Of a stretch of DNA of 64,000 bases, positions 6,875-45,914 are shown piece by piece. The DNA is taken from NCBI GenBank assembly GCA_002372315.1, contig DFFU01000012.1, positions 28,755 to 92,754 of the forward strand, written 5' to 3'. The translations under genes and the position numbers were made by a program. The notes below the pieces were generated by a model that saw only the letters and a list, made by a program, of their open reading frames with translations, made no database searches and was not told where the DNA came from. Numbering within the stretch: the stretch's first letter is position 1; every line of letters begins with the position of its first letter. Source of the DNA: Alphaproteobacteria bacterium UBA3768 (GTDB lineage: Bacteria; Pseudomonadota; Alphaproteobacteria; CAAHEQ01; UBA3637).

Positions 6875-7513
6875 ATGACACCTTTTCAAAAATTATTTTG
6901 GTTATTTCAAATGGGCGTATACTCTTTTTGTGGTGATAGGCCTCAAAATAAACTAAAACAGGTTATAGATTCTGCTGGTTTAATAAAATCAGAAAAGGGA
7001 AAAAACGAAATAGCGTTGATGAAAACGGCGTTGCATACCATGGTGGGAACAGGTTGTGTGTCGCCCCAAGTTATGTGTATTATGGAAGCACCATCTGCAT
7101 CAGAGGACAAAACAGGACTCTATTTGACAGGGCCAGAAGGGGAGTTGGCACAGAAAATGTTATCAGCTATTGGATTGGATTTAAGGCAAAATACTTATTT
7201 AACCTATTTGAGTCCTTGGCGTCCACCTGGCAATCGTTTGCTGACGAATGTGGAGGTCAATTATTGTCGAACATTATTGAAACAGCGGATTGATTCTTTA
7301 AAGCCCCAATTTATCCTCATACTGGGTGTTCCTGTTATCAAGGCATTGTTGGATGATAAAACACTTTCAGTGGTACGCTCAGGCCATGAAAAATACATGA
7401 ACATTCCTGTTTTGGGAACATTTGCGCCATCTTGGCTGATGAAAAATCCTGATTACCGTCGACCAGTTTGGGAAGATTTAAAAAAGTTTAAACAGATGAT
7501 AGAAAAGGAATAA
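6875..7513 (+). CDS. Uracil-DNA glycosylase superfamily protein (family 4-like)
   Basis: Contains VMCIMEAPSASEDKTGLYLTGPEGELAQKMLSAIGL and the following FILILG segment, which resemble the family 4 UDG / phage-polymerase-related UDG core. Confidence 0.65.
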   Translation: MTPFQKLFWLFQMGVYSFCGDRPQNKLKQVIDSAGLIKSEKGKNEIALMKTALHTMVGTGCVSPQVMCIMEAPSASEDKTGLYLTGPEGELAQKMLSAIGLDLRQNTYLTYLSPWRPPGNRLLTNVEVNYCRTLLKQRIDSLKPQFILILGVPVIKALLDDKTLSVVRSGHEKYMNIPVLGTFAPSWLMKNPDYRRPVWEDLKKFKQMIEKE

Positions 7514-7526
7514 CAGATTTTTTTTC

Positions 7527-7555
7527 TTGACTTTTGTGATTAAATACAATAAAAT
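7527..7555 (+). promoter_or_regulatory. sigma70-type promoter for rpmG
   Basis: TTGACT, 17-nt spacer, TAAAAT, about 30 nt upstream of the rpmG start. Confidence 0.5.
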
Positions 7556-14848: not shown

Positions 14849-15754
14849 ATGTCTGAAACAACGCAAAATTATACTTATCCTGAAAAGACATTAAAAATGG
14901 AAATGCCCTGTGTGGGCGTGTGCCTACACTGTGGTTTGCCTGTGCATATGAAATTGATCCCAGCCCAAAAAGGAACAGGCATACAATTTGTACGCATGGA
15001 TATTACCGATAAGAATAATGTTGTACCTGCCACTTATTTAAATGTAGCGGATGCGCGTTTGTGTACCAGCTTAGCCAACAAAGCGGGGGTAACTGTTTCC
15101 ATGATTGAACATTTGATGGGAGCATTACATGCTTTTGGTATTTCCAACTTGCGTGTGGAATTGGATGCACCTGAGGTTGCTTTGATGGATGGTTCAGCAC
15201 AAGATTACATTACTTTGATTGAATGTGCTGGGATTGTGGCACAAGATGCCCCTCAAAAAGCCATTAAAATTTTGAAAAAAGTAGAAGTTCAGGACGGGGA
15301 TGTATCTGTTTCTTTGTCGCCACATGATGGTGGTTTAGTTTTGGATACAATGATTGATTTTCCACAAAGTTCTGTTATTGGCCATCAAGAATACCATCTC
15401 GATTTGAATTTAGATAACTTTAAAGAATTGGTGGGACGTGCGCGCACTTTTGGTTTCGTGTCCGAAGTGGAACAATTGCGTGCTATGGGCTTGGCCAAGG
15501 GGGCCAGTTTGGAAAATGTGATTGCGGTGGAAAAAGATGGGGTCATGAACCCCGAAGGTTTGCGTAATCCCAAAGAATTTATTGCGCATAAAACATTGGA
15601 TGCAGTGGGTGATTTATATCAGCTCAATATGCCCGTCTTAGGGGCATTTAAGGGTGAGAAGTTTGGTCACCGTCACGTCAATCAATTATGGCGTAAATTG
15701 ATGGCGGACCATGAAGCTTATGAAATAGTTTTGTTGGATGAGGTCAATAAATAA
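14849..15754 (+). CDS. lpxC: UDP-3-O-acyl-N-acetylglucosamine deacetylase
   Basis: RBS AAGGAG upstream. Contains VGVCLHCGLPVHMKL, TVSMIEHLMGALHAFGISN and HKTLDAVGDL, the conserved LpxC blocks. Confidence 0.9.
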   Translation: MSETTQNYTYPEKTLKMEMPCVGVCLHCGLPVHMKLIPAQKGTGIQFVRMDITDKNNVVPATYLNVADARLCTSLANKAGVTVSMIEHLMGALHAFGISNLRVELDAPEVALMDGSAQDYITLIECAGIVAQDAPQKAIKILKKVEVQDGDVSVSLSPHDGGLVLDTMIDFPQSSVIGHQEYHLDLNLDNFKELVGRARTFGFVSEVEQLRAMGLAKGASLENVIAVEKDGVMNPEGLRNPKEFIAHKTLDAVGDLYQLNMPVLGAFKGEKFGHRHVNQLWRKLMADHEAYEIVLLDEVNK

Positions 15755-16464
15755 TCCAATGCCACTTGGGCGCAGGTTAATCCAAAGATTCCTGTAATGG
15801 TGGGCAGGGATCCCATTTGATGGCGTGCACGTCCCTTTTCGGGGAGTGAATCAGGTAGGGCTAGTTTGCTTTTATCTTGTGCTAATTCGGGTGAATAAAC
15901 AACAGGGAAATTTAAATCCACATTGCGCCTGCGCAAATACTTTCGAATGAAAGCCGCCAAAGGGTCGTTTTTTGTCTTTTTCATTTTTTCCACTTGAATT
16001 AGGTTTGTTTTTGTTTTAAGGGCAGCCCCCATACATGACACAAATGGAATTTTATTTTGAACCAGTGTTTCAATCAGGCATACTTTCGGATTTAAACTGT
16101 CAATCGCATCCACAACAAAATCAGGTTTTATTTTCAAAATTTCAGATACTGTTTTTTGATTGATGAGGATTTCATAAGTATCCACCTTGATTTCAGGGGC
16201 AATATCCAGTACACGCGCTTTAGCGACATCCACTTTTTTTTGTCCCAAAGTCGAATGAAGGGCAATCAGTTGGCGATTGATATTGCTAATACTGACTACA
16301 TCAAAATCAATCAAAGAAATATGACCAACGCCACCACGTGCCAAAGCCTCTAATGCGTAACTGCCAACAGCTCCACAGCCCACCACACAGATATGACTTT
16401 TTTGTAAGGTTTTTAATCCTTTTTCCCCCACCATTAAACGCATCCGAGAAAGTCTATCTTCCAT
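15718..16464 (-). CDS. tcdA: tRNA threonylcarbamoyladenosine dehydratase (ThiF/MoeB-fold, TcdA/CsdL)
   Basis: Contains VVGCGAVGSYALEALARGGVGHISLIDFDVVSISNINRQ, an E1-like Rossmann motif. Size (~250 aa) is typical of TcdA. Confidence 0.75.
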   Translation of the reverse strand: MEDRLSRMRLMVGEKGLKTLQKSHICVVGCGAVGSYALEALARGGVGHISLIDFDVVSISNINRQLIALHSTLGQKKVDVAKARVLDIAPEIKVDTYEILINQKTVSEILKIKPDFVVDAIDSLNPKVCLIETLVQNKIPFVSCMGAALKTKTNLIQVEKMKKTKNDPLAAFIRKYLRRRNVDLNFPVVYSPELAQDKSKLALPDSLPEKGRARHQMGSLPTITGIFGLTCAQVALDYLLTSSNKTIS

Positions 16465-28700: not shown

Positions 28701-29188
28701 CTGTCAGAACCTGTATAGCAGCAATTGTTTCTGATGTGCGTGAACGTATCAGCCAAAAAGGTAATCGCTTTGCTTTTGTTTCGGCTAGTGATAAATCGGG
28801 CTCTTTTGACATTATGTGTTTTTCGGATATATTGGAACAGCATAGGGATAAACTGAAATCTGGTCAGCCTTTGCTTTTGACTATCAGCGCGATTAAACGT
28901 GAAGGTGAAGAACAGATTCGGGTGAACATCCAAGACGTGGCTTATTTGGCGGATGCGATGGCCAAAACGCAAACAACCTTGATTGTGCGCTTAGAAAAAT
29001 CTGAGGCTGTGGATGAGGTGAAAAAAGTGTTGGAAAAAGTACCATCTGGTAAAAGTAAAATTTTCTTGCTTATCAAGACAAATGAATATGATGTAGAATT
29101 TGAATTGCCTAATCATTATACAATTGTGCCAGATGTTATTGATAGTCTATCCCGTATCTTAGGGGTTGCTGAGGTTAAGCAGGTTTAA
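25772..29188 (+). CDS. dnaE: DNA polymerase III alpha subunit
   Basis: ATG at 25772 gives MTPKFIHLHVHTAYSLLEGA (PHP domain). Conserved GRGSGAGSVVAWCL and PDIDVDF blocks. About 1140 aa. Confidence 0.95.
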   Translation: MTPKFIHLHVHTAYSLLEGAIKMPKLAKWAAENKMPAIAVTDSNNICGAMAMMHEMPPLGVQPILGTQLLVKSPKQNVGPLDISEDTFDKVVLLVQNETGYKHLLKLFSAYYMGADKQIQPHITFEELSAHTDGLICLTGGWEGLIGRPLLMGKYDYAKKITQKLKDAFGDRLYIELMRHGMSQEEQTEEAFLQLALDLNIPIVATNDAYFLTPDMYEAQDALMCIAEKKVLSDEDRRRLTPEHYLKSETEMCELFSDLPEALSNTVLIAKRCAFMAEKKKPAFPNYDCKGKTEDEVLADMAEEGFKIRMKGRSEEEQKKYHDQMLFELGVIKQMGFPGYFLIVADFIQWSKKNGVPVGPGRGSGAGSVVAWCLMITDIDPMRFDLVFERFLNPERVNMPDIDVDFCQEKREKTIEYVQNHYGFDHVAQIITFGKLQAKAVIRDVGRVMQVPFPVVDRLSKMIPNDPKMTLELAFEQEPRLKEEIDADEQVKELFAIAVKLEGLFRNTSTHAAGVVIGNKPLDEIVPIYKDPSSDMPVTQYDMKYVEEASLIKFDFLGLKTLTTIKKTLELIQKRGIEVDIDHIPLDDEETFKLLRAADTTGVFQLESTGMKKILHDMQPDKIEDIVALVSLYRPGPMDSIPTYIAVKKGLEKPDYMHPMLEPILKETYGIMIYQEQVMQISREMAGFTLGGADLLRRIMGKKKAELLPEQKVKFLAGAKEKGVDPKIAELVFDKMAKFASYGFNKAHAAAYAFIAYQTAYLKAHFPAEFMAATMTLDKINTDKLAIFKDDILAHKIEVLSPDINQSEVNFTVQDGKVRYALSAVKNVGEAGMQQVVAERNKNGPFKSLQDFASRVDVAALNKRYVENLAKAGAFECLEKNRALVFNNVENIVSYASQSTQARNSAQMGLFGADTSANALKLTRCPEWPQMEKLEHEKEALGFYLSAHPLDSFSTVLERLRAVDYADIAPMVAASGAVRTCIAAIVSDVRERISQKGNRFAFVSASDKSGSFDIMCFSDILEQHRDKLKSGQPLLLTISAIKREGEEQIRVNIQDVAYLADAMAKTQTTLIVRLEKSEAVDEVKKVLEKVPSGKSKIFLLIKTNEYDVEFELPNHYTIVPDVIDSLSRILGVAEVKQV

Positions 29189-34543: not shown

Positions 34544-34634
34544 CTGTATTTTTTCCAATAAGATTATATCAGCATAAATTAAATCAAAAATCAAGAATTA
34601 TCTGTGATGACAAATGAAAAATTTTATTTTAGGG

Positions 34635-34671
34635 GCACGATTTGGCTGGGCTCGTCGTGCATTTCCGAGCT
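34635..34671. repeat. Junction repeat R1 (truncated: inverted-repeat core plus right arm)
   Basis: GCACGAtTTGGCTGGgctcgTCGTGCatTTCCGAGCt. The left terminator-like arm is absent. Confidence 0.75.
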
Positions 34672-34680
34672 AAATTTAAG

Positions 34681-34709
34681 TTGAAATAAACTATTATCCG
34701 TGCTATAAT
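34681..34709 (+). promoter_or_regulatory. Promoter of cassette 1
   Basis: TTGAAA, 17-nt spacer, TATAAT, upstream of AAGGAAAGG and the ATG at 34736. Confidence 0.5.
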
Positions 34710-34735
34710 GAGACGAATAAAGGAAAGGATAAAAA

Positions 34736-35002
34736 ATGAGCAAACCAATTATTGTCGTGTGTTCCAATCATTGTATTACATCAGATACACAGAAAGCCAT
34801 TGATGAATTTAATGCAAAACAAAAAAGGTTAAGTGATCCTGCTTATTTACGTACACCAGAGGGGAAAAAGGAACTTGCTCTTGAAAAGAAACGAGATGCA
34901 AGATTTAAAAAAGAGATGGAAGAATATGACAGATTTATTAGCCGTCGTTTACATTTTTTTCCTCCTTTTGATGAATACTGCTGTTCTAAAGTAAAAGATT
35001 AG
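34736..35002 (+). CDS. Cassette 1: hypothetical 88-aa protein
   Basis: ORF with its own promoter and RBS, bounded by R1 and R2. No recognisable motif. Confidence 0.45.
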   Translation: MSKPIIVVCSNHCITSDTQKAIDEFNAKQKRLSDPAYLRTPEGKKELALEKKRDARFKKEMEEYDRFISRRLHFFPPFDEYCCSKVKD

Positions 35003-35104
35003 TGGTTTGAATTTCAAAATATTTCCAATAGATGAATATTAAAAATAAAAAAAAATTGTCCTATTAGTTTGAAATAAGGTATTTTTAAGCATTTTCCAAA
35101 AGCT

Positions 35105-35203
35105 CTGTTCCGAGCCGCAATAAGCGCTTGGAAATAAAAGAAAAAGTCGCCATATTTGACGACTTGCACAATTTGGCTGGGGGCATCTTGTTATACACGG
35201 ACT
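35105..35203. repeat. Junction repeat R2
   Basis: 35105..35182 matches the genuine tRNA-Gln 3' flank (41237..41314) at 75 of 78 positions, including the AAGTCG/CGACTT hairpin and TTGGCTGGGG. It then diverges and ends in ACACGGACT. Confidence 0.85.
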
Positions 35204-35222
35204 TACTGCGATATTTATATCA

Positions 35223-36173
35223 TCAATCTTTACACATTTTTTCTTTCAAGATTCTGAAAAATAACTGTGTTTTAGAGAAGTTTTTTTTCTTTTCTAACTC
35301 CGGCTTTTGAGTTTTTTTTACACTTTTAATAATCGGCTGAATATGACTGGACATATACTTTCGTAAATGTCGAGACATCCAAAATCGAAATATCAATAGT
35401 GTCAATAAATCGGGATTAAGGTAAGTAGAAAATATCAATTGATGCATTTCTGGTTTTTGTTTAAAAGTTTTATCAACCTCTTTTAATACTTTACAAAAAT
35501 CATTGATTTTTTGCTCTGTATTATTACTGCGCATAATAGAATTATTACCAGTTCGATATAAATAAGTCACATCAGGAGTCAATGCACAGGAGCGTGCGTT
35601 CGAAAAAATTTCCAAAGTAAAAGCTGTATCTTCATAATACACCCTCGGTAAAAAACGACTTTTCCCTATAACATCTCTCTTAAACAACTTATTCCAAACC
35701 GTAATTGGCGTCTTTGGGGGTCTTTGTGCAAAACAACTAATTGGATCTTTTTCCAAGAAAAAAACACCCGTAAGTTTTCTTTCATCTTTAACACTTGGAT
35801 TTTTTAACTTTTTATATTTTCCACCGATAATATCTGCATTCGTTTTTTTTGCGATATCTATAAATTTGGATAGCGCCTCTCTATGAAGTAAATCATCACT
35901 ATCCATAAAAAATACATATTTTCCTGTTGCTAAATCAATTCCTACATTTCGGGCATTTCCAACGCCATGACATTCTGTCGTTTTTATTTTTATGCGCATG
36001 TCCTTTTTGGCATACTCTTTTAGAATTTGGCCTGAGTTATCACAACTACCATCATTAATACAAATAATTTCAATGTTTTTATGGGATTGATTCAAAAGAG
36101 AATTTAAACACTCTCCTAAATATTTAGATGAGTTATGGACAGGAACAATAACCGAAATATCAGGAGCAAGCAT
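35223..36173 (-). CDS. Cassette 2: family 2 glycosyltransferase
   Basis: ISVIVPVHNSSKYLGECLNSLLNQSHKNIEIICINDGSCD plus a DSDD motif, which indicate the GT-A fold. Confidence 0.85.
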   Translation of the reverse strand: MLAPDISVIVPVHNSSKYLGECLNSLLNQSHKNIEIICINDGSCDNSGQILKEYAKKDMRIKIKTTECHGVGNARNVGIDLATGKYVFFMDSDDLLHREALSKFIDIAKKTNADIIGGKYKKLKNPSVKDERKLTGVFFLEKDPISCFAQRPPKTPITVWNKLFKRDVIGKSRFLPRVYYEDTAFTLEIFSNARSCALTPDVTYLYRTGNNSIMRSNNTEQKINDFCKVLKEVDKTFKQKPEMHQLIFSTYLNPDLLTLLIFRFWMSRHLRKYMSSHIQPIIKSVKKTQKPELEKKKNFSKTQLFFRILKEKMCKD

Positions 36174-36255
36174 AATATTACATTTACCTTTTAACAGAAA
36201 GAGAAATTTGTTATACCATTTTTGTATGAAAAGTCAAGAATTTTTCTGATTTATG

Positions 36256-36392
36256 AGTCCGTGTAAGTGCTATTTTTAGCCTATTTTGATAGGGGCAACA
36301 CGGACTCGTATAAGTGATTTATTTTAAAAGAAAAAGTGCCAATTTTTGGCACCCTTCAAGACTTGCTGGAGTCATCTTGCATGGTACGGACT
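36256..36392. repeat. Junction repeat R3 (divergent copy)
   Basis: AGTCCGTGT, 33 nt, ACACGGACT; then an A-rich tract, a GTGCCAA/TTGGCAC hairpin, CAAGA-cTTGCTGG-agtca-TCTTG, and a terminal GTACGGACT. Confidence 0.75.
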
Positions 36393-36396
36393 AGTT

Positions 36397-37377
36397 TTAT
36401 TCATGAGTATTAATACGTTCTAATTGCTGCACAGGTGCACCTACTTTAATCCGCCGAAATGATGGAACTGTTTTTTTATGAATTATTTGTAAAGGTTGAT
36501 TTGGATTAACCACTTTTACTTCTGGAATTTCAAAATAAGTGCGTTGTTCAGAGGGTAAAATCGGAATTGTCCATCCAACCCCTCTAATTGGTTTAGTTGG
36601 ATCAAATAAAGTATAAATTGCTTTTCCTAAGGAATTCTGTTGTCGTGCAAAATCATAAGATTTTTGAACAGCCCCAAACAATTGATGAAAATGGCGTGGA
36701 TATTTTTCCCGAAATCCATATATTCCATTTAATAATTCAAATGAACCTGTGCATACTGAGGTTCCGCCCAAATGTGTCCCACCCACTGTATGGATACCAT
36801 CTCCAGCGTCCTTCCCTTCCTTTTCCTGAAAATTTACAATATCATCATTTTCATGCCAACGAACATCAATAAAATCGTTTTCATCCACCTTAGCATTTTT
36901 ATGTAATGGCCACAATAAAAGAGCATATTCAATTTTGTCAGCATAAATTGTTGGGCGGTTTAGATTATTTCCCAATAATTTTTGCTTCATTACTTGTGGT
37001 GTTTGAATAGATTCTTTTGGCCATTCAATATACATCAAACGAGTCATTGCTGCTCGATACTTAATTCCGTTATCCATGGATACTAGGGCTACAAAGGGTT
37101 TGCCTTCCATAGCAAGCGTATATTGTGTCGGATTAGCAAGAGGATATTTGATAAAATCACCTATTAGTTTTTCTTCTAACTCCAGATTAGGTTTTAAGCG
37201 AAAAATGCTTTTTACTTGAGCAGGTTGTGCTACTTTTATAGCAAAAAAATATTCTTCGGCACGTTTTGCCCGTTCGGCATCAGCCTGTTTTTTCTTTTCC
37301 TTTTGTTCTTTTTGAAAATCGCTGATATTTTGTTTTAAGGATTTTTCAACAGACTTAAATAAATCATCATCATTCAT
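36397..37377 (-). CDS. Cassette 3: hypothetical 326-aa protein (Lys/Glu-rich N-terminus, unknown globular domain)
   Basis: Long ORF with the promoter TTGACA-17-TAAAAT on the minus strand at 37405..37433. No recognisable motif. Confidence 0.6.
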   Translation of the reverse strand: MNDDDLFKSVEKSLKQNISDFQKEQKEKKKQADAERAKRAEEYFFAIKVAQPAQVKSIFRLKPNLELEEKLIGDFIKYPLANPTQYTLAMEGKPFVALVSMDNGIKYRAAMTRLMYIEWPKESIQTPQVMKQKLLGNNLNRPTIYADKIEYALLLWPLHKNAKVDENDFIDVRWHENDDIVNFQEKEGKDAGDGIHTVGGTHLGGTSVCTGSFELLNGIYGFREKYPRHFHQLFGAVQKSYDFARQQNSLGKAIYTLFDPTKPIRGVGWTIPILPSEQRTYFEIPEVKVVNPNQPLQIIHKKTVPSFRRIKVGAPVQQLERINTHE

Positions 37378-37502
37378 GTTTATAAACCCTTCATAATTGA
37401 ATTTATTTTACATACTTTTACAGCAAATGTCAAATAATCTAGGATGATTTTTGTATTTTCCAAGATACAGATATTGAAAACAAAGGAAATTTCAATATAA
37501 CT

Positions 37503-37640
37503 AGTCCGTGTAAGTGGAAAATGTGGCCTTTTTTATATCCTCTCACACGGACTTTTATAACAGCATGAAAATAAAAGAAAAAGTCGCCACTTTTGACGAC
37601 TCTCACAACTTGGCTGGACTCGTCGTGCTATACACGGACT
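37503..37640. repeat. Junction repeat R4
   Basis: 37502..37628 is identical to 38537..38663 (127 nt). Ends in tatACACGGACT. Confidence 0.9.
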
Positions 37641-37699
37641 AAAAATTGTTGCAATCAATGAATAAATAGTTTAATATCCGTCTATGGAGGTAGTAGGAG

Positions 37700-38491
37700 A
37701 TGACCACTAATAAATATAAAGACATCATTTTGAATAAGTACGCTGATTGTGATGAAGATTCACGCTTAATAAAAGATCGTGCACATAATATTGAATATCT
37801 AACAACAATGCATTATATTCAAAAATTCTTAAAACCTGGGGCGAAGATATTGGAAGTTGGTGCAGGAACAGGGCGTTATTCTATTGCCTTAGCTAAAATG
37901 GGATATAACGTCACTGCTGTTGATTTAACTCCTAGATATGTTGAAATAATGAAACGTAAAAGTCGTAGACTTAAAAATTTTCAATGTATGGTAGCTGATG
38001 CGTTGGATTTAAGTATGTTTAAAAATAATTCTTTTGATATTGTCCTTAATCTTGGACCGATGTATCATCTGTTTACCCTAAAAGATAAAAAACAAGCAAT
38101 TAAGGAAACGTTGCGTGTGGCTAAGAAAAATGCTGTTTGCATGTTTGCTTACCTTTCTCACAGTTCAATAATGCTCAGTTATGGTCTAATCAAAAATCAT
38201 GTTTCTGAGGTAGTTTCTTGTGTAGATAAAACTGGTCGAATCAAAGATATTCCAGAAAAAGTTTTTGCAGCTTTTTATGTGGAAGATTTTAAAAAATTAT
38301 TTTTACAAACAAATACGAAATATATTGTAAATGTCGCCACAGATGGTATTGCTCCAGCAATGAGTGAAAAGATTGAGCAATTATCAAAGAAGGACTATCA
38401 AGCATTTTTAAATTGGCGTTTTATGACATGTGAACGTTTAGATCAACAGGGACTTAGTTCACATTTGCTTTATGTTTGTAAGAAAAACTAA
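37700..38491 (+). CDS. Cassette 4: class I SAM-dependent methyltransferase
   Basis: ILEVGAGTGRYSIALAKMGYNVTAVDLTP (motif I / post I) and FDIVLNLGPMYHL. Promoter TTGCAA-17-TAATAT at 37649..37677. Confidence 0.85.
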   Translation: MTTNKYKDIILNKYADCDEDSRLIKDRAHNIEYLTTMHYIQKFLKPGAKILEVGAGTGRYSIALAKMGYNVTAVDLTPRYVEIMKRKSRRLKNFQCMVADALDLSMFKNNSFDIVLNLGPMYHLFTLKDKKQAIKETLRVAKKNAVCMFAYLSHSSIMLSYGLIKNHVSEVVSCVDKTGRIKDIPEKVFAAFYVEDFKKLFLQTNTKYIVNVATDGIAPAMSEKIEQLSKKDYQAFLNWRFMTCERLDQQGLSSHLLYVCKKN

Positions 38492-38537
38492 TACAAAAAG
38501 ACATAATTATTAAAATCAAAGGATTATTTCAAATTTT

Positions 38538-38675
38538 AGTCCGTGTAAGTGGAAAATGTGGCCTTTTTTATATCCTCTCACACGGACTTTTATAACAGCA
38601 TGAAAATAAAAGAAAAAGTCGCCACTTTTGACGACTCTCACAACTTGGCTGGACTCGTCGTGCAATTTCCGAGCC
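38538..38675. repeat. Junction repeat R5
   Basis: Identical to R4 for 127 nt, then ends aatTTCCGAGCC instead of tatACACGGACT. Confidence 0.9.
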
Positions 38676-38738
38676 GATTTCATACTATATTGACATCTGA
38701 AATAATTACTGATAAAGTATTTTTGAAAGGTTTCTATA

Positions 38739-39197
38739 ATGCCAAAAGAAATAAGATTTTGTACTCCAAAAGGGGAATATTGGTTTTTATCGCCACTGGC
38801 TGCTTTTCCAATAAAAATGACAGTGGATGATGCAGATTATATTTTTCCAAGCGTTGAACATTACTATCAAGCGATGAAATTTTATGCCTCAGATAAAAGA
38901 TTTGATGTTATTTTAAAATTAAAAAATCCTGATGAAGCTCGATTGCTTACCAAAACAGTAGAATATAAAATAAATCGCAGGAAAGATTTTGATATCAACA
39001 AATTTAATATTATGGAAAAAGCTTTATATGCTAAATTTATTCAAAATCCTGATGCAGCAGAATTGTTAAAATCCACGGGTGATGCAATATTGATTAAATC
39101 ATGCCCTGTATGTTATAAATGTGGATTTGGTGAAGGAAGTGGCATGAATCGCATGGGCAAAGTTTTGATGAAAATCAGGTCAGAAATTCAAAAATAA
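38739..39197 (+). CDS. Cassette 5: NADAR (YbiA/DUF1768) family protein
   Basis: FLSPLAAFPI...YIFPSVEHYYQAMKF, then LYAKFIQNPDAAELLKSTGDAILI, then GFGEGSGMNRMGKVLMKIR, matching the NADAR signature blocks. Promoter TTGACA-17-TAAAGT at 38690..38718. Confidence 0.75.
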   Translation: MPKEIRFCTPKGEYWFLSPLAAFPIKMTVDDADYIFPSVEHYYQAMKFYASDKRFDVILKLKNPDEARLLTKTVEYKINRRKDFDINKFNIMEKALYAKFIQNPDAAELLKSTGDAILIKSCPVCYKCGFGEGSGMNRMGKVLMKIRSEIQK

Positions 39198-39204
39198 AAT
39201 GTAC

Positions 39205-39440
39205 TCATGGTTCGAGCCAAATCAAAAAATGAGCTATTTTTAAATTTTGTGTTCGAACTAGAATAAATGCTTACGAATAAAAGAAAAAACGTCCATAAAG
39301 GACGTTTGTGCCAATTCCGACATCAATTCGCCTACATTTCCATTTGGCTCATTGTGTCTCATTGCTTTGCGCACAAAAATAATTCACTGGATTATTTTTG
39401 TTTTGCTCAGTGGCTGGAGTCGTCGTGCAATGTATGAGCT
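39205..39440. repeat. Junction repeat R6 (degenerate, with ~110-nt internal insertion)
   Basis: Order: GTTCGAGCC, AATGAGCTATTTTTA, GAATAAAAGAAAAA, ACGTCC/GGACGT hairpin, insertion, gTGGCTGGagtcgtcgtgcaatgtatGAGCT. It is collinear with R8. Confidence 0.65.
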
Positions 39441-39484
39441 AACTATTCAGGTGAGCAACAGAAAACGAAAAAATTATTCTAAAA

Positions 39485-40459
39485 CTAACGAGAATTGTTT
39501 CCAGCATCATTGGCACGTCTACTGGCACCTTTACGCGACTCTTGTAAGATGGTTACTGCTTTTCGAACATCAAAACGGTCTTCTTTGTGCAAATAACCCG
39601 TACAATAACCTTTGCGAGGTACTTGCGTTGGCCATTTTGCATTTGGACTCTTGATGTTTTCAATATTCTTCTTAGAAACTGCCTTGTATGATTTTAACAA
39701 TGTTTCTTTCATTGATTTTCTTTCAGCTGTTGGTTTTAATGACTTAGGACCTTTCATGAGAGCTTCAATCCTTTCATTAAACTCTCTCCTTATCAAATCT
39801 TGTAACTTATATTCTCCTCTGCCAGCAGTAAATTTATAACCTTCATCCAAAAGCGATGTATTACCCCCAGTAAGCGATCCATCCCAAGTATAATCAAAAG
39901 GAGTACTTTTATGCCCGTACTCACTGACCCAAAGACCTTTTCGCTTTAATTTTCCACCTTCTGTAAATTCTTCGTAGATATTAGTAGGGCAATGATGTCG
40001 TTGTTTAACTAAACCATTCGAATGATACGTTGTTTCCGTTTGTGTTTCCGGATCATATCTGTATTCAAAAATCGGTCGCCCTTCAGCGTCCCATTTGGAT
40101 ATATGTCTACCATAGTTGTCCGTATTACGTACAGACAAACTTGCAATTTTACCATTTGGATGGTATTCCGCATATTCTTCTCTTCCCGGTTGTGATAAGC
40201 TAGAACGTTCTAAAGAGCCATCTTTACGGTAATACGCATATTCATCTCTTTCCCGTTGTACTAGTTTAGAAGCTTTCAAAGATCCATCTTCACGGTAATT
40301 TAATTCATAACTATCACCATTCTCATAAAAGAAATGAATGGCTTGAGGTACTTTCTTTTCAAAAAATGCCAAAAACGACTTTTTAGGGTAATACTGAACC
40401 CTTACTTTCACCTTACCCGATAATGTTTGTGTAATGGTTGTATCAAAATATTTTTTCAT
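39485..40459 (-). CDS. Cassette 6: MORN-variant (YwqK-like) repeat protein
   Basis: Repeated Y..(D/N)G(S/K)L units, e.g. FYENGDSYELNYREDGSLKAS, YYRKDGSLERS, EYHPNGKIASL, TYHSNGLVKQ. Basic C-terminal third. Confidence 0.65.
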   Translation of the reverse strand: MKKYFDTTITQTLSGKVKVRVQYYPKKSFLAFFEKKVPQAIHFFYENGDSYELNYREDGSLKASKLVQRERDEYAYYRKDGSLERSSLSQPGREEYAEYHPNGKIASLSVRNTDNYGRHISKWDAEGRPIFEYRYDPETQTETTYHSNGLVKQRHHCPTNIYEEFTEGGKLKRKGLWVSEYGHKSTPFDYTWDGSLTGGNTSLLDEGYKFTAGRGEYKLQDLIRREFNERIEALMKGPKSLKPTAERKSMKETLLKSYKAVSKKNIENIKSPNAKWPTQVPRKGYCTGYLHKEDRFDVRKAVTILQESRKGASRRANDAGNNSR

Positions 40460-40488
40460 AAATACCTCCTATCATATTAGATACTAAT

Positions 40489-40517
40489 ATTATATATGAA
40501 TGCATATTTCCTGTCAA
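40489..40517 (-). promoter_or_regulatory. Consensus sigma70 promoter of cassette 6
   Basis: Minus strand reads TTGACA, 17-nt spacer, TATAAT (both perfect), followed by AGGAGG and the ATG at 40459. Confidence 0.6.
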
Positions 40518-40587
40518 GTTTTTTTTATCCCAGATATTGGGAAATAAGATTTTTTGACTTTTTAGCTCAGAGCGGGTCGTTTTTGGG

Positions 40588-40857
40588 CGTTTTCTAAAAT
40601 CTTTGTTCCGAGCCACGATAAGCGCTTAGAAACAAAAGAAAAAAGGTCCTTTATGGACGCTTGCACGATTTGGCTGGGGTGGCTGATTGCTCACTTCGCT
40701 CGTCCTCACGATATTCGGACCGCCTTTGGCGTCGTTCGCTACGCTCACCGAACCAACTCTTTCGTTGGGCCGATTCCAACGTACCCTTAGCCATCAAAAA
40801 ACCGCCCACATGGGCGGATTTTTTTACTGGCTGGACTCGTCGTGCAATTTCCGAGCT
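40588..40857. repeat. Junction repeat R7 (compound: two cores with a 150-nt insert)
   Basis: Flank-like arm, then TTGGCTGG followed by a 15-nt exact tRNA-Gln 3' fragment (40671..40685 = 41306..41320). Next come a relatively GC-rich segment, a terminator, and a second core cTGGCTGGactcgtcgtgcaatTTCCGAGCt. Confidence 0.8.
40795..40825. terminator. Bidirectional rho-independent terminator inside R7
   Basis: AAAAAA-CCGCCC-acat-GGGCGG-aTTTTTTT. Confidence 0.7.
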
Positions 40858-40922
40858 GAAATTTGTTATTGCTATTTGTTTTTTGATAAGATATAATCGC
40901 TTTGCAATGAAAGGTTTGTGAA

Positions 40923-41165
40923 ATGACTACAACTATCCAGAAAGAAGATAAAATCTCTACCTTTGATGATAAATCCGTGGTAAAAGTTGCTACTCATAAG
41001 GGTAGAAAATCATCACAAACAAAAGTTCCGCTTGTTCCTCTGAAAAGATCAAAATTTGTCCTTGATAACCCAGATAAAGCTTTTGCACACTCCGACCGAT
41101 TTGCAAAAATAATGGATGAAGCATCTCGTTGGGCAGTAATTAGGAATTACGACTTTGAGAGATAA
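40923..41165 (+). CDS. Cassette 7: hypothetical 80-aa protein
   Basis: ORF with the promoter TTGCTA-17-TATAAT (40869..40897), bounded by R7 and R8. No recognisable motif. Confidence 0.45.
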   Translation: MTTTIQKEDKISTFDDKSVVKVATHKGRKSSQTKVPLVPLKRSKFVLDNPDKAFAHSDRFAKIMDEASRWAVIRNYDFER

Positions 41166-41194
41166 TATATTTATTTTAAAAGAAATTTTTAACT

Positions 41195-41312
41195 GTTGGT
41201 TCGGAATGAGCTATTTTTAGAGATTTTCTAGAAGGTCTGTTCCGAGCCACAATAAGCGCTTAGAAATAAAAGAAAAAGTCGCCATATTTGACGACTTGCA
41301 CGATTTGGCTGG
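41195..41312. repeat. Junction repeat R8 = native 3' flank of tRNA-Gln
   Basis: Order: GGTTCGGAATGAGCTATTTTTAG, CTGTTCCGAGCC, terminator hairpin, GCACGATTTGGCTGG, running directly into the tRNA body. Confidence 0.85.
41264..41297 (-). terminator. Terminator of tRNA-Gln
   Basis: On the minus strand, an AAGTCG-tcaaatatgg-CGACTT hairpin is followed by TTTTTCTTTTATTT. This same module recurs in R2-R7. Confidence 0.6.
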
Positions 41313-41381
41313 GGTGGCTGGATTCGAACCAACGAAATGGCGGAATCAGAATCCGCTGCCTTACCACTTGGCGACACCCCA
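41306..41381 (-). tRNA. tRNA-Gln (anticodon CUG)
   Basis: Minus strand: TGGGGTG TC GCCAAGTGGTAAGGC A GCGGA TTCTGAT TCCGC CATTTC GTTGG TTCGAAT CCAGC CACCCCA G CCA. This gives a 7-bp acceptor stem, TTCGAAT T-loop, anticodon loop TT-CTG-AT and an encoded CCA. Confidence 0.9.
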
Positions 41382-44712: not shown

Positions 44713-45840
44713 TTAGATATATTTCTTATAAAAATCGCGTACGGCTTCGGCAATGAGTGTGTGTCCTTTTAAATTGGGATGAACGCCATCATCACATAGA
44801 AAATCACGATAATTTTTTTGTTTAAAAAAATAAGTTGTAATATCAATGACGGGGACATTGCATTCCAAAGCGATTTTGAAAATTTCCAAGTTGTACATCA
44901 TGTGGAAAGTATGGGCTCTTTCTGTTGTGCCATCCATTACTTTTAAAATACACTTTTTGTTACGTCCTTGTGAAATATATTCAAAAAAACGTTCGGCATC
45001 AATGGGGGGCATGGATAAAAGCAGGGGGACTTTCCCTTGTTTTTGTGTCAGCTGAATCAAATGAATATAACGTGTATGAAATTCGGATAAAGACAAGTGA
45101 GGGCCGTGTTTTTTATGCGGATATTGACAAACAGCATCCCAATCGTGGTTGCACTCGTTTGATCCAAAAGAAAAGACAATGTAATCACAATTTTTAACAT
45201 AGGATAAATGTGATAAGAATGCTTTTTCCCCTTCAACAACAGTGGAACCATGTCGGGCAAAATTTTTCCATATAATGTTCAATTCTTGCTTGGATAGATT
45301 GACGAAACTGTCTTTTAAAATTTGATATTTATTTGTCTGAGCATCATGTATGATGCCTTCTAAAATAGAATCCCCAAAACCGCATAGTATTAGATTTTTC
45401 TTTAATTTTTCTGGATCAGGCTTACGATTTTTAATTAAAACATCCACTTCGTAGCCATTGGTAAAATTATTGACGGAAACACCAAAATTTCCGCGGTTTT
45501 CAATATAAAGTTTGCGGATGTATGAACGAATAGTTGTTTCGTCTACCTGTTGCATTTTGGGAATAGCGGTAAAGGTATAAGGGATATTTTTGGGAAAATT
45601 TTTAATCCAACGTGCCATAGTAGTAGGTGTTACAGATAAAATTTTGGCCACTTGATTTTGGGAAATACCCAATTGGCAAAGTGCCAATGCTGTGGCCTTA
45701 TCTTTGCTATCTCTGCCATGGGGGGTCATCTTGGTAAATTGATGCCCACACCTTTTGCATTGGTAGCGTTGTACCCCAAAAACAAATCCGTTTTTTTTAA
45801 TTTCACAAGCCCCACAATTTTTACAAACAATTCTTTCCAT
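44713..45840 (-). CDS. Fusion protein: IS1 InsA-like zinc ribbon + HTH, joined to an SGNH/GDSL hydrolase domain
   Basis: ATG at 45840. The N-terminus reads CKNCGACEIKKNGFVFGVQRYQCKRCGHQF, then LGISQNQVAKILSVTPTTMARWIKNF. The C-terminal domain has CGFGDSILEG (block I) and DDGVHPNLKGH (block V). Confidence 0.65.
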   Translation of the reverse strand: MERIVCKNCGACEIKKNGFVFGVQRYQCKRCGHQFTKMTPHGRDSKDKATALALCQLGISQNQVAKILSVTPTTMARWIKNFPKNIPYTFTAIPKMQQVDETTIRSYIRKLYIENRGNFGVSVNNFTNGYEVDVLIKNRKPDPEKLKKNLILCGFGDSILEGIIHDAQTNKYQILKDSFVNLSKQELNIIWKNFARHGSTVVEGEKAFLSHLSYVKNCDYIVFSFGSNECNHDWDAVCQYPHKKHGPHLSLSEFHTRYIHLIQLTQKQGKVPLLLSMPPIDAERFFEYISQGRNKKCILKVMDGTTERAHTFHMMYNLEIFKIALECNVPVIDITTYFFKQKNYRDFLCDDGVHPNLKGHTLIAEAVRDFYKKYI

Positions 45841-45914
45841 ATCTTCATCATAAATGAAATTTGCTAGAATTGCAAGAAACATTGACTTTTTTTGTTTTTT
45901 TTGATATGATGTAG

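Follow-up and report, generated by a model that had tools for sequence, protein, structure and literature searches.

The 64,000-nucleotide stretch analysed here (the window; contig DFFU01000012.1 of Alphaproteobacteria bacterium UBA3768, positions 28,755 to 92,754) comes from an uncultured rumen or gut alphaproteobacterium with a G+C content of 37.5%, and its Obg and L31 proteins fall into 90%-identity clusters with proteins named 'MAG: ... [Alphaproteobacteria bacterium]' (MAG, metagenome-assembled genome). ARAGORN and Rfam both identify one tRNA in the window, an intact tRNA-Gln(CTG) on the minus strand; Rfam matched nothing else, at gathering or at permissive thresholds. As the initial annotation of this DNA had proposed, the 3' end of this tRNA anchors an array of seven cassettes with one gene each; two non-coding mini-units are present as well, making nine units in 6.7 kb (Table 1). 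The cassettes share a layout consisting of a right arm, a promoter recognisable as sigma-70-type (in six of the seven), one open reading frame (ORF) in either orientation, a module of ~110 nt (module A), and a short core. The early observations that single genes separate successive junctions and that both orientations occur hold, with four ORFs on the plus strand and three on the minus strand; according to Pfam, the cassettes encode a GT2 glycosyltransferase, an S-adenosylmethionine (SAM) methyltransferase, a NADAR protein, a 324-aa protein whose match to MORN_2 is sub-threshold (17.7 bits, below the cut-off of 29.6), and three orphans.

The core of the junctions is the heptamer TGGCTGG, the complement of the tRNA-Gln 3' end CCAGCCA (the 3' end of tRNA-Gln(CTG), read on the plus strand, is TGGCTGGGGTGGCTGGATTCGAACC). 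There are nine cores, all in direct orientation, the last being the tRNA end itself and the third (R3) reading TTGCTGG, with core-to-core spacings of 531, 1189, 1248, 1035, 765, 1260, 157, and 478 bp. The initial annotation described eight junction repeats (R1-R8) with an invariant octamer. Our repeats D1-D8 reproduce R1-R8, but the cores number nine, R7 is a double junction, and R6 includes a gene-less unit; furthermore, the invariant element is the heptamer rather than the octamer, given that the base preceding the nine cores varies (in order, T, T, C, T, T, G, T, C, T) and that R3 departs from the consensus. The figure initially given for R2 and R8 is exact, with 3 mismatches between them over 78 positions. 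When up to three mismatches are allowed, the 18-mer TGGCTGGRSTCGTCGTGC is present in six copies, all on the plus strand and all within 34643-40845, compared to 0.01 expected from shuffled sequences, and is absent from the remaining ~57 kb of the window.

A common plan emerges when 15 diverse junctions, taken from the window and from related metagenome or MAG contigs (labelled with L-numbers below), are aligned. On the plus strand, a junction begins with a motif M' (for example, TGGTTCGGAA, AGTCCGTGT, or GGTTCGAGCC), a ~32-nt A+T-rich loop, and the complementary motif M; these are followed by AT-AAGCGCTT-nGAAATAAAAGAAAAA, a hairpin with a junction-specific stem sequence, CTTGCACGATT, and TGGCTGG; the last part consists of the right arm, conserved as (A/G)(C/G)TC(G/A)TC(G/T)TGCAA, ~5 nt, and M again. 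The heptamer is unchanged across the 15 junctions, whereas the 11 nt on either side of it are variable. The M'/M helix comprises 10 bp, with 91.3% of the cells paired; both sides have changed in 27 cells, compared to 12.3 in shuffled data (none of the 500 shuffles reaches 27); sliding the partner lowers the pairing to 49% or less, and G.T wobbles favour the plus strand (19 vs 9). Around the core, TTGCACGA and TCGTGCAA form inverted repeats 14-15 nt apart, and the half-sites make up a 30-bp dyad that is conserved at its outer positions.

The motif M' frequently reads (T)GGTTCG(A/G)A (41194-41210 in the window, and other junctions), resembling the T-arm box of tRNAs, as in GTTGGTTCGGAAT compared with GTTGGTTCGAAT of tRNA-Gln in the opposite orientation, and the distance from the right-arm M to the core is close to the T-loop distance in tRNA; this likeness may represent target mimicry or chance. 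The possibility that the right arm is a decayed tRNA T-arm was considered as well (CGAGTCCAGCCA matches CGAATCCAGCCA at 11 of 12 positions), but the similarity ends there, and we treat this as unproven. Pairing of the right arm with the terminator stem was rejected, the complementarity being limited to some of the junctions.

The class of the motif on the right side of each junction is the same as that on the left side of the next one: cassette 1 carries CCGAGC, cassettes 2-4 carry ACGGACT, and cassettes 5-7 carry CCGAGC-like motifs. Thus, R2 and R5 are hybrids, and the cassettes behave as units, a pattern expected if each cassette once had a two-armed att site that recombined at the core. This matching of motif types, along with the finding that the NADAR cassette keeps its own left arm over the distal ~80 nt in all contexts examined, indicates that the left arm, initially taken for a copy of the sequence flanking the tRNA, is best read as cassette-borne. 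Two other types of left arm, type B, a bidirectional G+C hairpin, and type C, the A+T hairpin of one of the mini-units (R6-mini), have nothing in common with the prevalent type A except for the core and a hairpin 8-12 nt away from it.

The initial description of the cassettes as promoter-bearing is corroborated by sigma-70-type promoter matches of 10-12 of 12 positions upstream of five cassette ORFs; all six matches of at least 10 of 12 positions in the 34.4-41.5 kb interval are located upstream of a cassette ORF or of the tRNA. The inner hairpin of the junction, together with the preceding A-run, forms a predicted rho-independent terminator of minus-strand transcription, which arrives from the side of the tRNA, and such terminators are predicted at 35165, 37604, 38639, 39307, and 41297. 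With promoters at the genes and terminators at the junctions, the cassettes look like self-contained, insulated expression units.

Both gene-less units recur elsewhere. R7 encloses a 157-nt G+C-rich unit (cores 40671 and 40828) that begins with 16 nt shared with the tRNA 3' end, including the core (TGGCTGGGGTGGCTG), and R6 consists of a decayed core and the ~100-nt R6-mini. A conserved ~130-nt form of the G+C-rich unit, with GGACCGCCTnnGGCGTC at its centre, is also present in L125, L128, L132 (three copies), L133, and L154; in every case it adjoins 16-19 nt of a tRNA 3' end, that of tRNA-Gln or, in L132 (7400-7526), tRNA-Gly. RNAalifold predicts a multi-stem fold on the plus strand, with a covariation term that is not supportive, and the unit has no Rfam match; it may represent either a small RNA or a cassette that is 'empty' apart from its att site. 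Its origin as the distal end of the tRNA-Gln(TTG) integrase element described below was ruled out, the distal end in L151 being unrelated. R6-mini is 90% conserved in L128 and is also found in L132 (10560-10672 and, inverted, 7300-7400) and L154 (8365-8470); it has the A+T hairpin CAAAAATAATTCACTGGATTATTTTTG and then a T-run at its end and, elsewhere, often directly precedes the G+C-rich unit.

The initial expectation that related genomes would not carry the same genes in the same order is borne out. A pattern scan of metagenomes yielded three related but different arrays (L126, L125, and L128), and the same junction anatomy with different cassettes is also seen in L089, L132-L141, and L154. 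The gene order in L126 is NADAR, APH, a 70-aa ORF, DUF6782, PAP2, and tRNA-Gln(CTG); L128 and L125 combine other genes with the same two gene-less units as in the window; and one related array adjoins a two-piece transfer-messenger RNA. L089, a sheep-rumen Alphaproteobacteria MAG, is the only relevant match listed from a scan of genome contigs with the TGGCTGGNNTCGTCGTGC pattern, which also produced at least 119 single chance matches in high-G+C genomes. Scanning viral contigs with five patterns (arm, module A, core junction, and G+C-rich unit) gave no matches or chance matches (53-68% G+C), and BLAST against phage and plasmid collections gave none.

Movement of an individual cassette can be followed in the case of the NADAR gene. 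Close relatives of the NADAR protein number 367, most of them encoded on contigs of 1-3 kb, and the identical protein P0007 is encoded in at least six neighbourhoods, always bounded by cores; these contexts include tRNA-Gln(TTG) with hisS, tRNA-Gln(CTG) with mutY, a second tRNA-Gln(CTG) sequence type, and 17-nt remnants of tRNA-Gln. Everywhere, the P0007 cassette starts with TGGCTGG and the right arm and ends with its own module A and TGGCTGG. In four pairwise comparisons, the breakpoints map to the core or no more than 10 nt from it. L136 and L134 are 99.45% identical over 2923 bp, up to the core, after which one continues into a tRNA remnant and the other into another cassette; the 99.8% identity between L136 and L137 extends to core position +10, beyond which an intact tRNA follows in one of them and a remnant beside an M20 peptidase gene in the other; L089 and L136 share the right flank (89.6% identity) but differ in the cassette; and the 97% identity between the window and L135 begins 1 nt before the core. 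No exact match to the left-flank GT2 protein is on record.

Homologues of two cassette genes are found outside cassettes. A chromosomal homologue of the NADAR protein (79% aa identity) is encoded after acrB in a MarR-OEP-AcrB-NADAR-HAD cluster (L142-L147 and L151-L153), and a homologue of the 326-aa orphan (70% identity) is encoded between genes for a CotH-domain protein and a hydrolase, without junction motifs (L171 and L172). These homologues suggest that cassettes are recruited from resident genes.

Parallel structures are anchored on other tRNAs. An array in L132 (7553-9487) ends at tRNA-Lys(CTT) (c9412-9487), and its cores, at 7553, 8309, and 9412, read TGGTGGG, the complement of the tRNA-Lys end CCCACCA. 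The Lys junctions have an M'/M hairpin of their own (GTTCGAAA/TTTCGAAC), an A-run, the hairpin GCCACCG...GGTGGC, and a right arm (...GCTATCTTCGAATAAA), and they delimit two cassettes, one with a 140-aa ORF weakly matching DUF7768 and the other with a 270-aa ORF. In the same contig, tRNA-Gly(CCC) has R6-mini and G+C-rich units downstream, which keep the same orientation with respect to this tRNA and end in a 19-nt copy of its 3' end. The Lys array, with its own tRNA 3' end, and the Gly units indicate that the short core is cognate to the anchoring tRNA.

The array thus has a regular anatomy and a hybrid-junction logic, its cassettes are mobile between sites and genomes with breakpoints at the core, and it is associated with tRNA 3' ends. 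We consider it fairly probable that this is an accretion array of small, integrase-less cassettes built by site-specific recombination at the tRNA-Gln 3' end, with a recombinase supplied in trans. Repeated insertion of this kind had been suggested initially and, judging from the sequence comparisons, appears to be correct in substance. Under this scenario, crossover would occur in or beside the invariant heptamer TGGCTGG (CCAGCCA on the tRNA strand), and the free cassette would be a putative circle with an att site composed of module A, TGGCTGG, and the right arm. Module A would contribute the covarying M'/M hairpin, the A-run, the terminator hairpin, and TTGCACGATT, and the right arm would contribute ACTCGTCGTGCAA and a third copy of motif M. 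Insertion, either at the tRNA end or at any existing junction, would leave the right arm, promoter, and gene distal and place module A against the tRNA, where it would become the new tRNA terminator; with this geometry, successive junctions would become hybrids. The array would subsequently be reshaped by gene conversion or homologous recombination between junctions. An invariant core with variable flanks has the appearance of an overlap region that must match between the recombination partners.

The recombinase itself would be encoded elsewhere in the genome. The absence of integrase and transposase genes from the 64 kb, noted from the outset, is confirmed at the Pfam level: among the window ORFs of at least 150 aa, no integrase, resolvase, or transposase and no PF00589 match was detected. 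The best candidate might be a family of ~500-aa tyrosine integrases of the DUF6538 type; alternatively, the enzyme acting in trans could be a serine recombinase. Related MAGs encode a tyrosine integrase of 502 aa (PF00589, preceded by DUF6538 at the N-terminus) directly at the CCA end of tRNA-Gln(TTG), in an element of ~10 kb flanked by a 19-nt repeat of the tRNA end, and a homologue with 63% identity is located likewise at tRNA-Thr(CGT). Such ~10-kb integrase elements were identified in L142 (2771-4490), L151 (9790-20068), and L148 (9319-19484), with repeats of 18-19 nt of the tRNA end, each followed by a terminator; the L148 element also encodes a DUF5906 primase, a Rep-like protein, and a resolvase. 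The DUF6538 integrase family has 249 members at E < 1e-20, and all those with a named source come from Alphaproteobacteria MAGs. The insertion of this family at tRNA CCA ends in the same clade makes it a reasonable trans-acting candidate.

Several observations weigh against site-specific accretion. No recombinase gene is present in the 64 kb or was seen beside any array examined; the link between the integrase family and the arrays is circumstantial, and the integrase elements contain 18-19 nt of the tRNA compared to 7 nt in most cassettes; and half-sites conserved at their outer positions would, from sequence, be no less compatible with serine than with tyrosine recombinases. Neither an excised circle nor an empty site was seen in the assembled contigs, and contigs of the same strain from three sample sets show the same cassette order wherever they overlap. 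Positions 37502-37628 are identical to 38537-38663 (R4 and R5, 127 of 127 nt), forming a direct repeat that flanks the methyltransferase segment, even though the genes flanking the two junctions are unrelated. This identity ends exactly at core position +11 and at the start of M', that is, at the limits of mutual homology, which points to gene conversion, an additional process that the accretion model then needs; the perfect repeats could reflect either gene conversion or local cassette genesis. Finally, the ends of the NADAR cassettes are hypervariable: among six near-identical cassettes, variation affects ~5 of the 11 columns at +1 to +11 and ~15 of the 30 columns in the final ~30 nt ahead of the right core, whereas the interior is nearly invariant (~6 of 610 columns). 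Such ends, which include the hairpin and spacer before the right core, were noted in L133, L134, L136, L137, L140, L141, and L154 and are not predicted if the recombinase has a single fixed crossover. Exchange between junctions by homology is probably superimposed on site-specific insertion, and the invariance of the 7-nt core within the hypervariable zone argues for a sequence that must match between partners.

Small resolvases are encoded near two loci. In L133 (1-3023), an RVT_1 reverse transcriptase, a 201-aa resolvase, and an SNF2 helicase are encoded 6-10 kb to the left of a tRNA-Gln array, with LemA/TPM genes in between.

Among the alternatives to accretion, the one that fares best, while still unlikely, dispenses with a dedicated recombinase: the junction modules (~110-150 bp) would serve as portable homology for RecA-type homologous recombination, gene conversion, or transformation, similarly to the minimal mobile elements of Neisseria. 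The failure to find a recombinase, the termination of the R4/R5 identity exactly where mutual homology stops, and the mosaicism of the junction centre, from -35 to +11, among otherwise identical NADAR cassettes are all in line with this possibility, and the near-invariant GAATAAAAGAAAAA and TGCAATTTCCGAGC could act as anchors. However, portable homology leaves unexplained why, in the case of four different tRNA genes, arrays begin precisely at the CCA end, with cognate cores, and why 7 nt remain constant inside a hypervariable zone; nor does it fit with breakpoints at the core or within 10 nt of it in all four comparisons, or with left arms of types B and C, which share too little with type A for homologous recombination.

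Less likely still is a mechanism involving a folded single strand, in the style of integron attC sites or HUH/Y1 enzymes, where, in the att site of the excised cassette, M' would pair with the right-arm M around the inner hairpins and the core, and an enzyme would recognise the resulting structure and recombine it with the double-stranded tRNA end. The strong covariation of the M'/M helix, with wobbles that favour the plus strand, would be accounted for in this way, and so would the hairpin that each of the three left-arm types has 8-12 nt from the core; furthermore, the non-hybrid junction R4 folds into one long hairpin as a single strand (z = -4.9 and -5.2 for the two strands). The hybrid junctions R2 and R8, in contrast, fold unexceptionally (z between -1.5 and -2.2), the core is located in the loop rather than in the stem, genes of the IntI-like or HUH kind were not seen, a role as tRNA terminator accounts for the inner hairpin, and the M motifs could equally be protein-binding sites in the arms. 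The characteristic integron boxes are missing as well: neither R'' (RYYYAAC) nor R' (GTTRRRY) is found within -20/+25 nt of the nine cores, and the sole paired match in the array interval lies inside the methyltransferase ORF.

We regard as quite improbable the derivation of the array from large tRNA-integrating islands, under which integrase-bearing elements would have inserted serially and been deleted down to single genes, so that the cassettes were never mobile. Elements of the required type, ~10 kb long and carrying an integrase, do occur at tRNA ends in this clade, the G+C-rich unit with its 16-19 nt of tRNA identity resembles a leftover element end, and tandem islands parted by partial tRNAs, along with degenerated remnants, are described in the tycheposon preprint. 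Erosion, though, is not expected to produce nine units with one and the same order of arm, promoter, ORF, and module or an identical 0.67-kb cassette in at least six core-bounded contexts, and it would not maintain a covarying 10-bp helix. The remaining alternative, a generic intergenic element unrelated to mobility, such as a repetitive extragenic palindromic (REP) sequence, a miniature inverted-repeat transposable element (MITE), or a terminator/promoter module, is already contradicted and has next to no probability: the junctions do contain terminators and adjoin promoters, but the core-plus-right-arm sites occur only inside arrays, with no copies elsewhere in the window (57 kb) or in non-array loci of related Alphaproteobacteria totalling ~350 kb (partly redundant), so that membership among REP or MITE elements dispersed in unrelated intergenic regions was rejected; furthermore, the sites are always tied to tRNA 3' ends, and cassette content differs between genomes.

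To our knowledge, no well-understood system other than integrons keeps a stock of single genes in the form of exchangeable cassettes. The present array resembles integrons (sedentary chromosomal ones included) and groups of clustered attC sites without an integron-integrase (CALIN) in having mostly single-ORF cassettes of ~0.5-1.3 kb, a single fixed anchor, hybrid junctions, a predominance of orphan genes, and structured repeats of ~100-150 bp with inverted repeats between the cassettes, and it is similar to CALIN in the lack of a neighbouring integrase. Unlike in integrons, there is no IntI, the anchor is a tRNA 3' end rather than attI, the boundary is TGGCTGG, and at least 30 nt of the junction belong to the following cassette, compared to 6 nt in integrons; moreover, the cassettes of the array bear promoters and occur in both orientations, whereas integron cassettes are mostly promoterless, lie in one orientation, and are driven by Pc. 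The array, therefore, works like an integron but fails integron membership, lacking IntI and attC boxes and carrying promoters and genes in both orientations, and the integron-like character asserted initially stands as an analogy only, the defining features of integrons having been looked for and not found. In a survey of 243 alphaproteobacterial genomes, no integron, In0, or CALIN was detected, an absence called 'extremely puzzling' (PMC4889954).

Mechanistically, the closest analogues appear to be the tandem accretion of integrase-less tRNA elements, as in cis-mobilizable elements (CIMEs), and tycheposon islands. With tRNA islands and CIMEs, the array shares integration at a tRNA 3' end, direct repeats of the tRNA end alongside an intact tRNA, tandem accretion, and occurrence of the same element at different sites and in different genomes, with breakpoints at the core; the dependence of integrase-less elements on an integrase acting in trans is also what we propose here. 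It differs from them in that the units are single genes of ~0.5-1.3 kb rather than many kb, tRNA identity is 7 nt in most of the units, and a conserved module of ~110 nt with a right arm is common to all units. Tycheposons of Prochlorococcus similarly place cargo at a few tRNA genes, with partial tRNAs between neighbours and degenerate remnants, and have been proposed to build variable islands, but, as described in the preprint, they encode their own tyrosine or serine recombinase, with att sites of typically ~40 nt given for such elements (bioRxiv 10.1101/2020.12.28.424599), and they carry multi-gene cargo. The array has no element-encoded recombinase, no replication module, and no ~40-nt att sites, and tycheposons are not known to have a shared cassette module.

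Composite staphylococcal cassette chromosome (SCC) islands at rlmH and the pdif modules of Acinetobacter plasmids also consist of small modules that accumulate next to one another, with short recombination sites at their borders, and rely on recombinases encoded elsewhere (ccr and XerC/D, respectively). Their targets are different, the rlmH 3' end or 28-bp dif-like sites, and so is the host group. A loose search of this A+T-rich genome for the XerD arm of dif-like (11-6-11) sites gave no match coinciding with any core, and membership among Xer-dependent pdif modules or integrative mobile elements exploiting Xer (IMEX) was rejected on these grounds. We found no description of arrays of this kind in the literature, and they add a variant to the known kinds of site-specific gene capture, one that is likely widespread in a poorly studied clade.

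More tentatively, and short of what we would call probable, the arrays might constitute a dedicated cassette-capture platform of uncultured gut and rumen Alphaproteobacteria that is independent of integrons. In such a platform, the 3' ends of tRNAs (Gln, Lys, and perhaps Gly) would play the role of attI, the ~110-nt module with the right arm would play that of attC, the self-promoted, terminator-insulated cassettes would be made locally from chromosomal genes, and the recombinase acting in trans would use a short core that can be swapped between tRNAs. If a tRNA-anchored analogue of integrons does exist in Alphaproteobacteria, the cassette-array solution arose more than once, and a second system would be available for studying the birth of cassettes; the short cores cognate to different tRNAs hint at a recombination site that is easily retargeted.

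The junction repeats also affect assembly. Short contigs identical to parts of the locus are present in the sheep rumen metagenome AUXO01 (PMC4158751) and in two Sequence Read Archive runs. Short-read assemblies of the host strain (the end of L120; L121-L124 and L127) are interrupted at the junction repeats and precisely at the CCA end of the tRNA, and the rpmE contig of SRR5322936 stops exactly at ...CCCCAGCC, the CCA end of the tRNA. Most of the cassette homologues are on contigs of 1-3 kb. Arrays of this kind would be systematically missing or fragmented in MAGs, and their junction repeats would explain recurrent assembly breaks in rumen and gut MAGs. The rpmE loci reached through L31 cluster mates have a different synteny, with no tRNA-Gln beside rpmE.

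Table 1. Units of the array on tRNA-Gln(CTG) and their features (window coordinates; strand of the ORF, RNA gene, or unit)
Feature	Position	Strand	Details
R1, distal boundary junction	34634..34671	+	Truncated left half-site GGCACGATT; core 34643-34649; right arm GCTCGTCGTGCATTTCCGAGC
Cassette 1	34650..35180	+	Promoter 34681-34709 (11/12 match, TG-extended); 88-aa orphan ORF 34736-35002 (+); module A ~35062-35173; core 35174-35180
Cassette 2	35181..36369	-	Right arm GGGCATCTTGTTATACACGGACT; GT2 glycosyltransferase ORF 35223-36173 (-); module A ~36252-36362; core variant TTGCTGG 36363-36369
Cassette 3	36370..37617	-	326-aa orphan ORF 36397-37377 (-); promoter 37433-37405 (11/12 match); module A 37502-37610; core 37611-37617
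Cassette 4	37618..38652	+	SAM methyltransferase ORF 37700-38491 (+); module A 38537-38645; core 38646-38652
Cassette 4 flanks	37631-37648 / 38530-38547		18-nt inverted repeat
Cassette 5	38653..39320	+	Promoter 38690-38718 (TTGACA-17-TAAAGT); NADAR ORF 38739-39197 (+); module A ~39205-39307, then decayed core TTGTGCCAATTCCGAC
R6-mini, gene-less	39308..39417	+	Ends with A+T-rich plus-strand hairpin, T-run, core 39411-39417
Cassette 6	39418..40677	-	324-aa ORF 39485-40459 (-), sub-threshold MORN_2; promoter 40517-40489 (12/12, perfect consensus); module A ~40560-40670; core 40671-40677
G+C-rich unit, gene-less	40678..40834	+	Several conserved hairpins; bidirectional terminator 40802-40817; core 40828-40834
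Cassette 7	40835..41312	+	Promoter 40869-40897 (10/12 match); 80-aa orphan ORF 40923-41165 (+); module A ~41194-41305; core 41306-41312, the last 7 nt of the tRNA
tRNA-Gln(CTG), array anchor	41306..41381	-	Promoter-like site 41422-41394; terminator 41297-41276 from module A of cassette 7

Two observations concern other genes. In another alphaproteobacterial genus, L158 contains an extra gene for a 188-aa protein (15449-16015) compared with the otherwise collinear L157 and L159. In the window, a gene adjoining one of the FadL family encodes a 389-aa protein (44713-45882, minus strand) with an unusual domain fusion, combining an IS1595-type zinc ribbon and HTH_23 in the N-terminal part with a C-terminal GDSL lipase domain.

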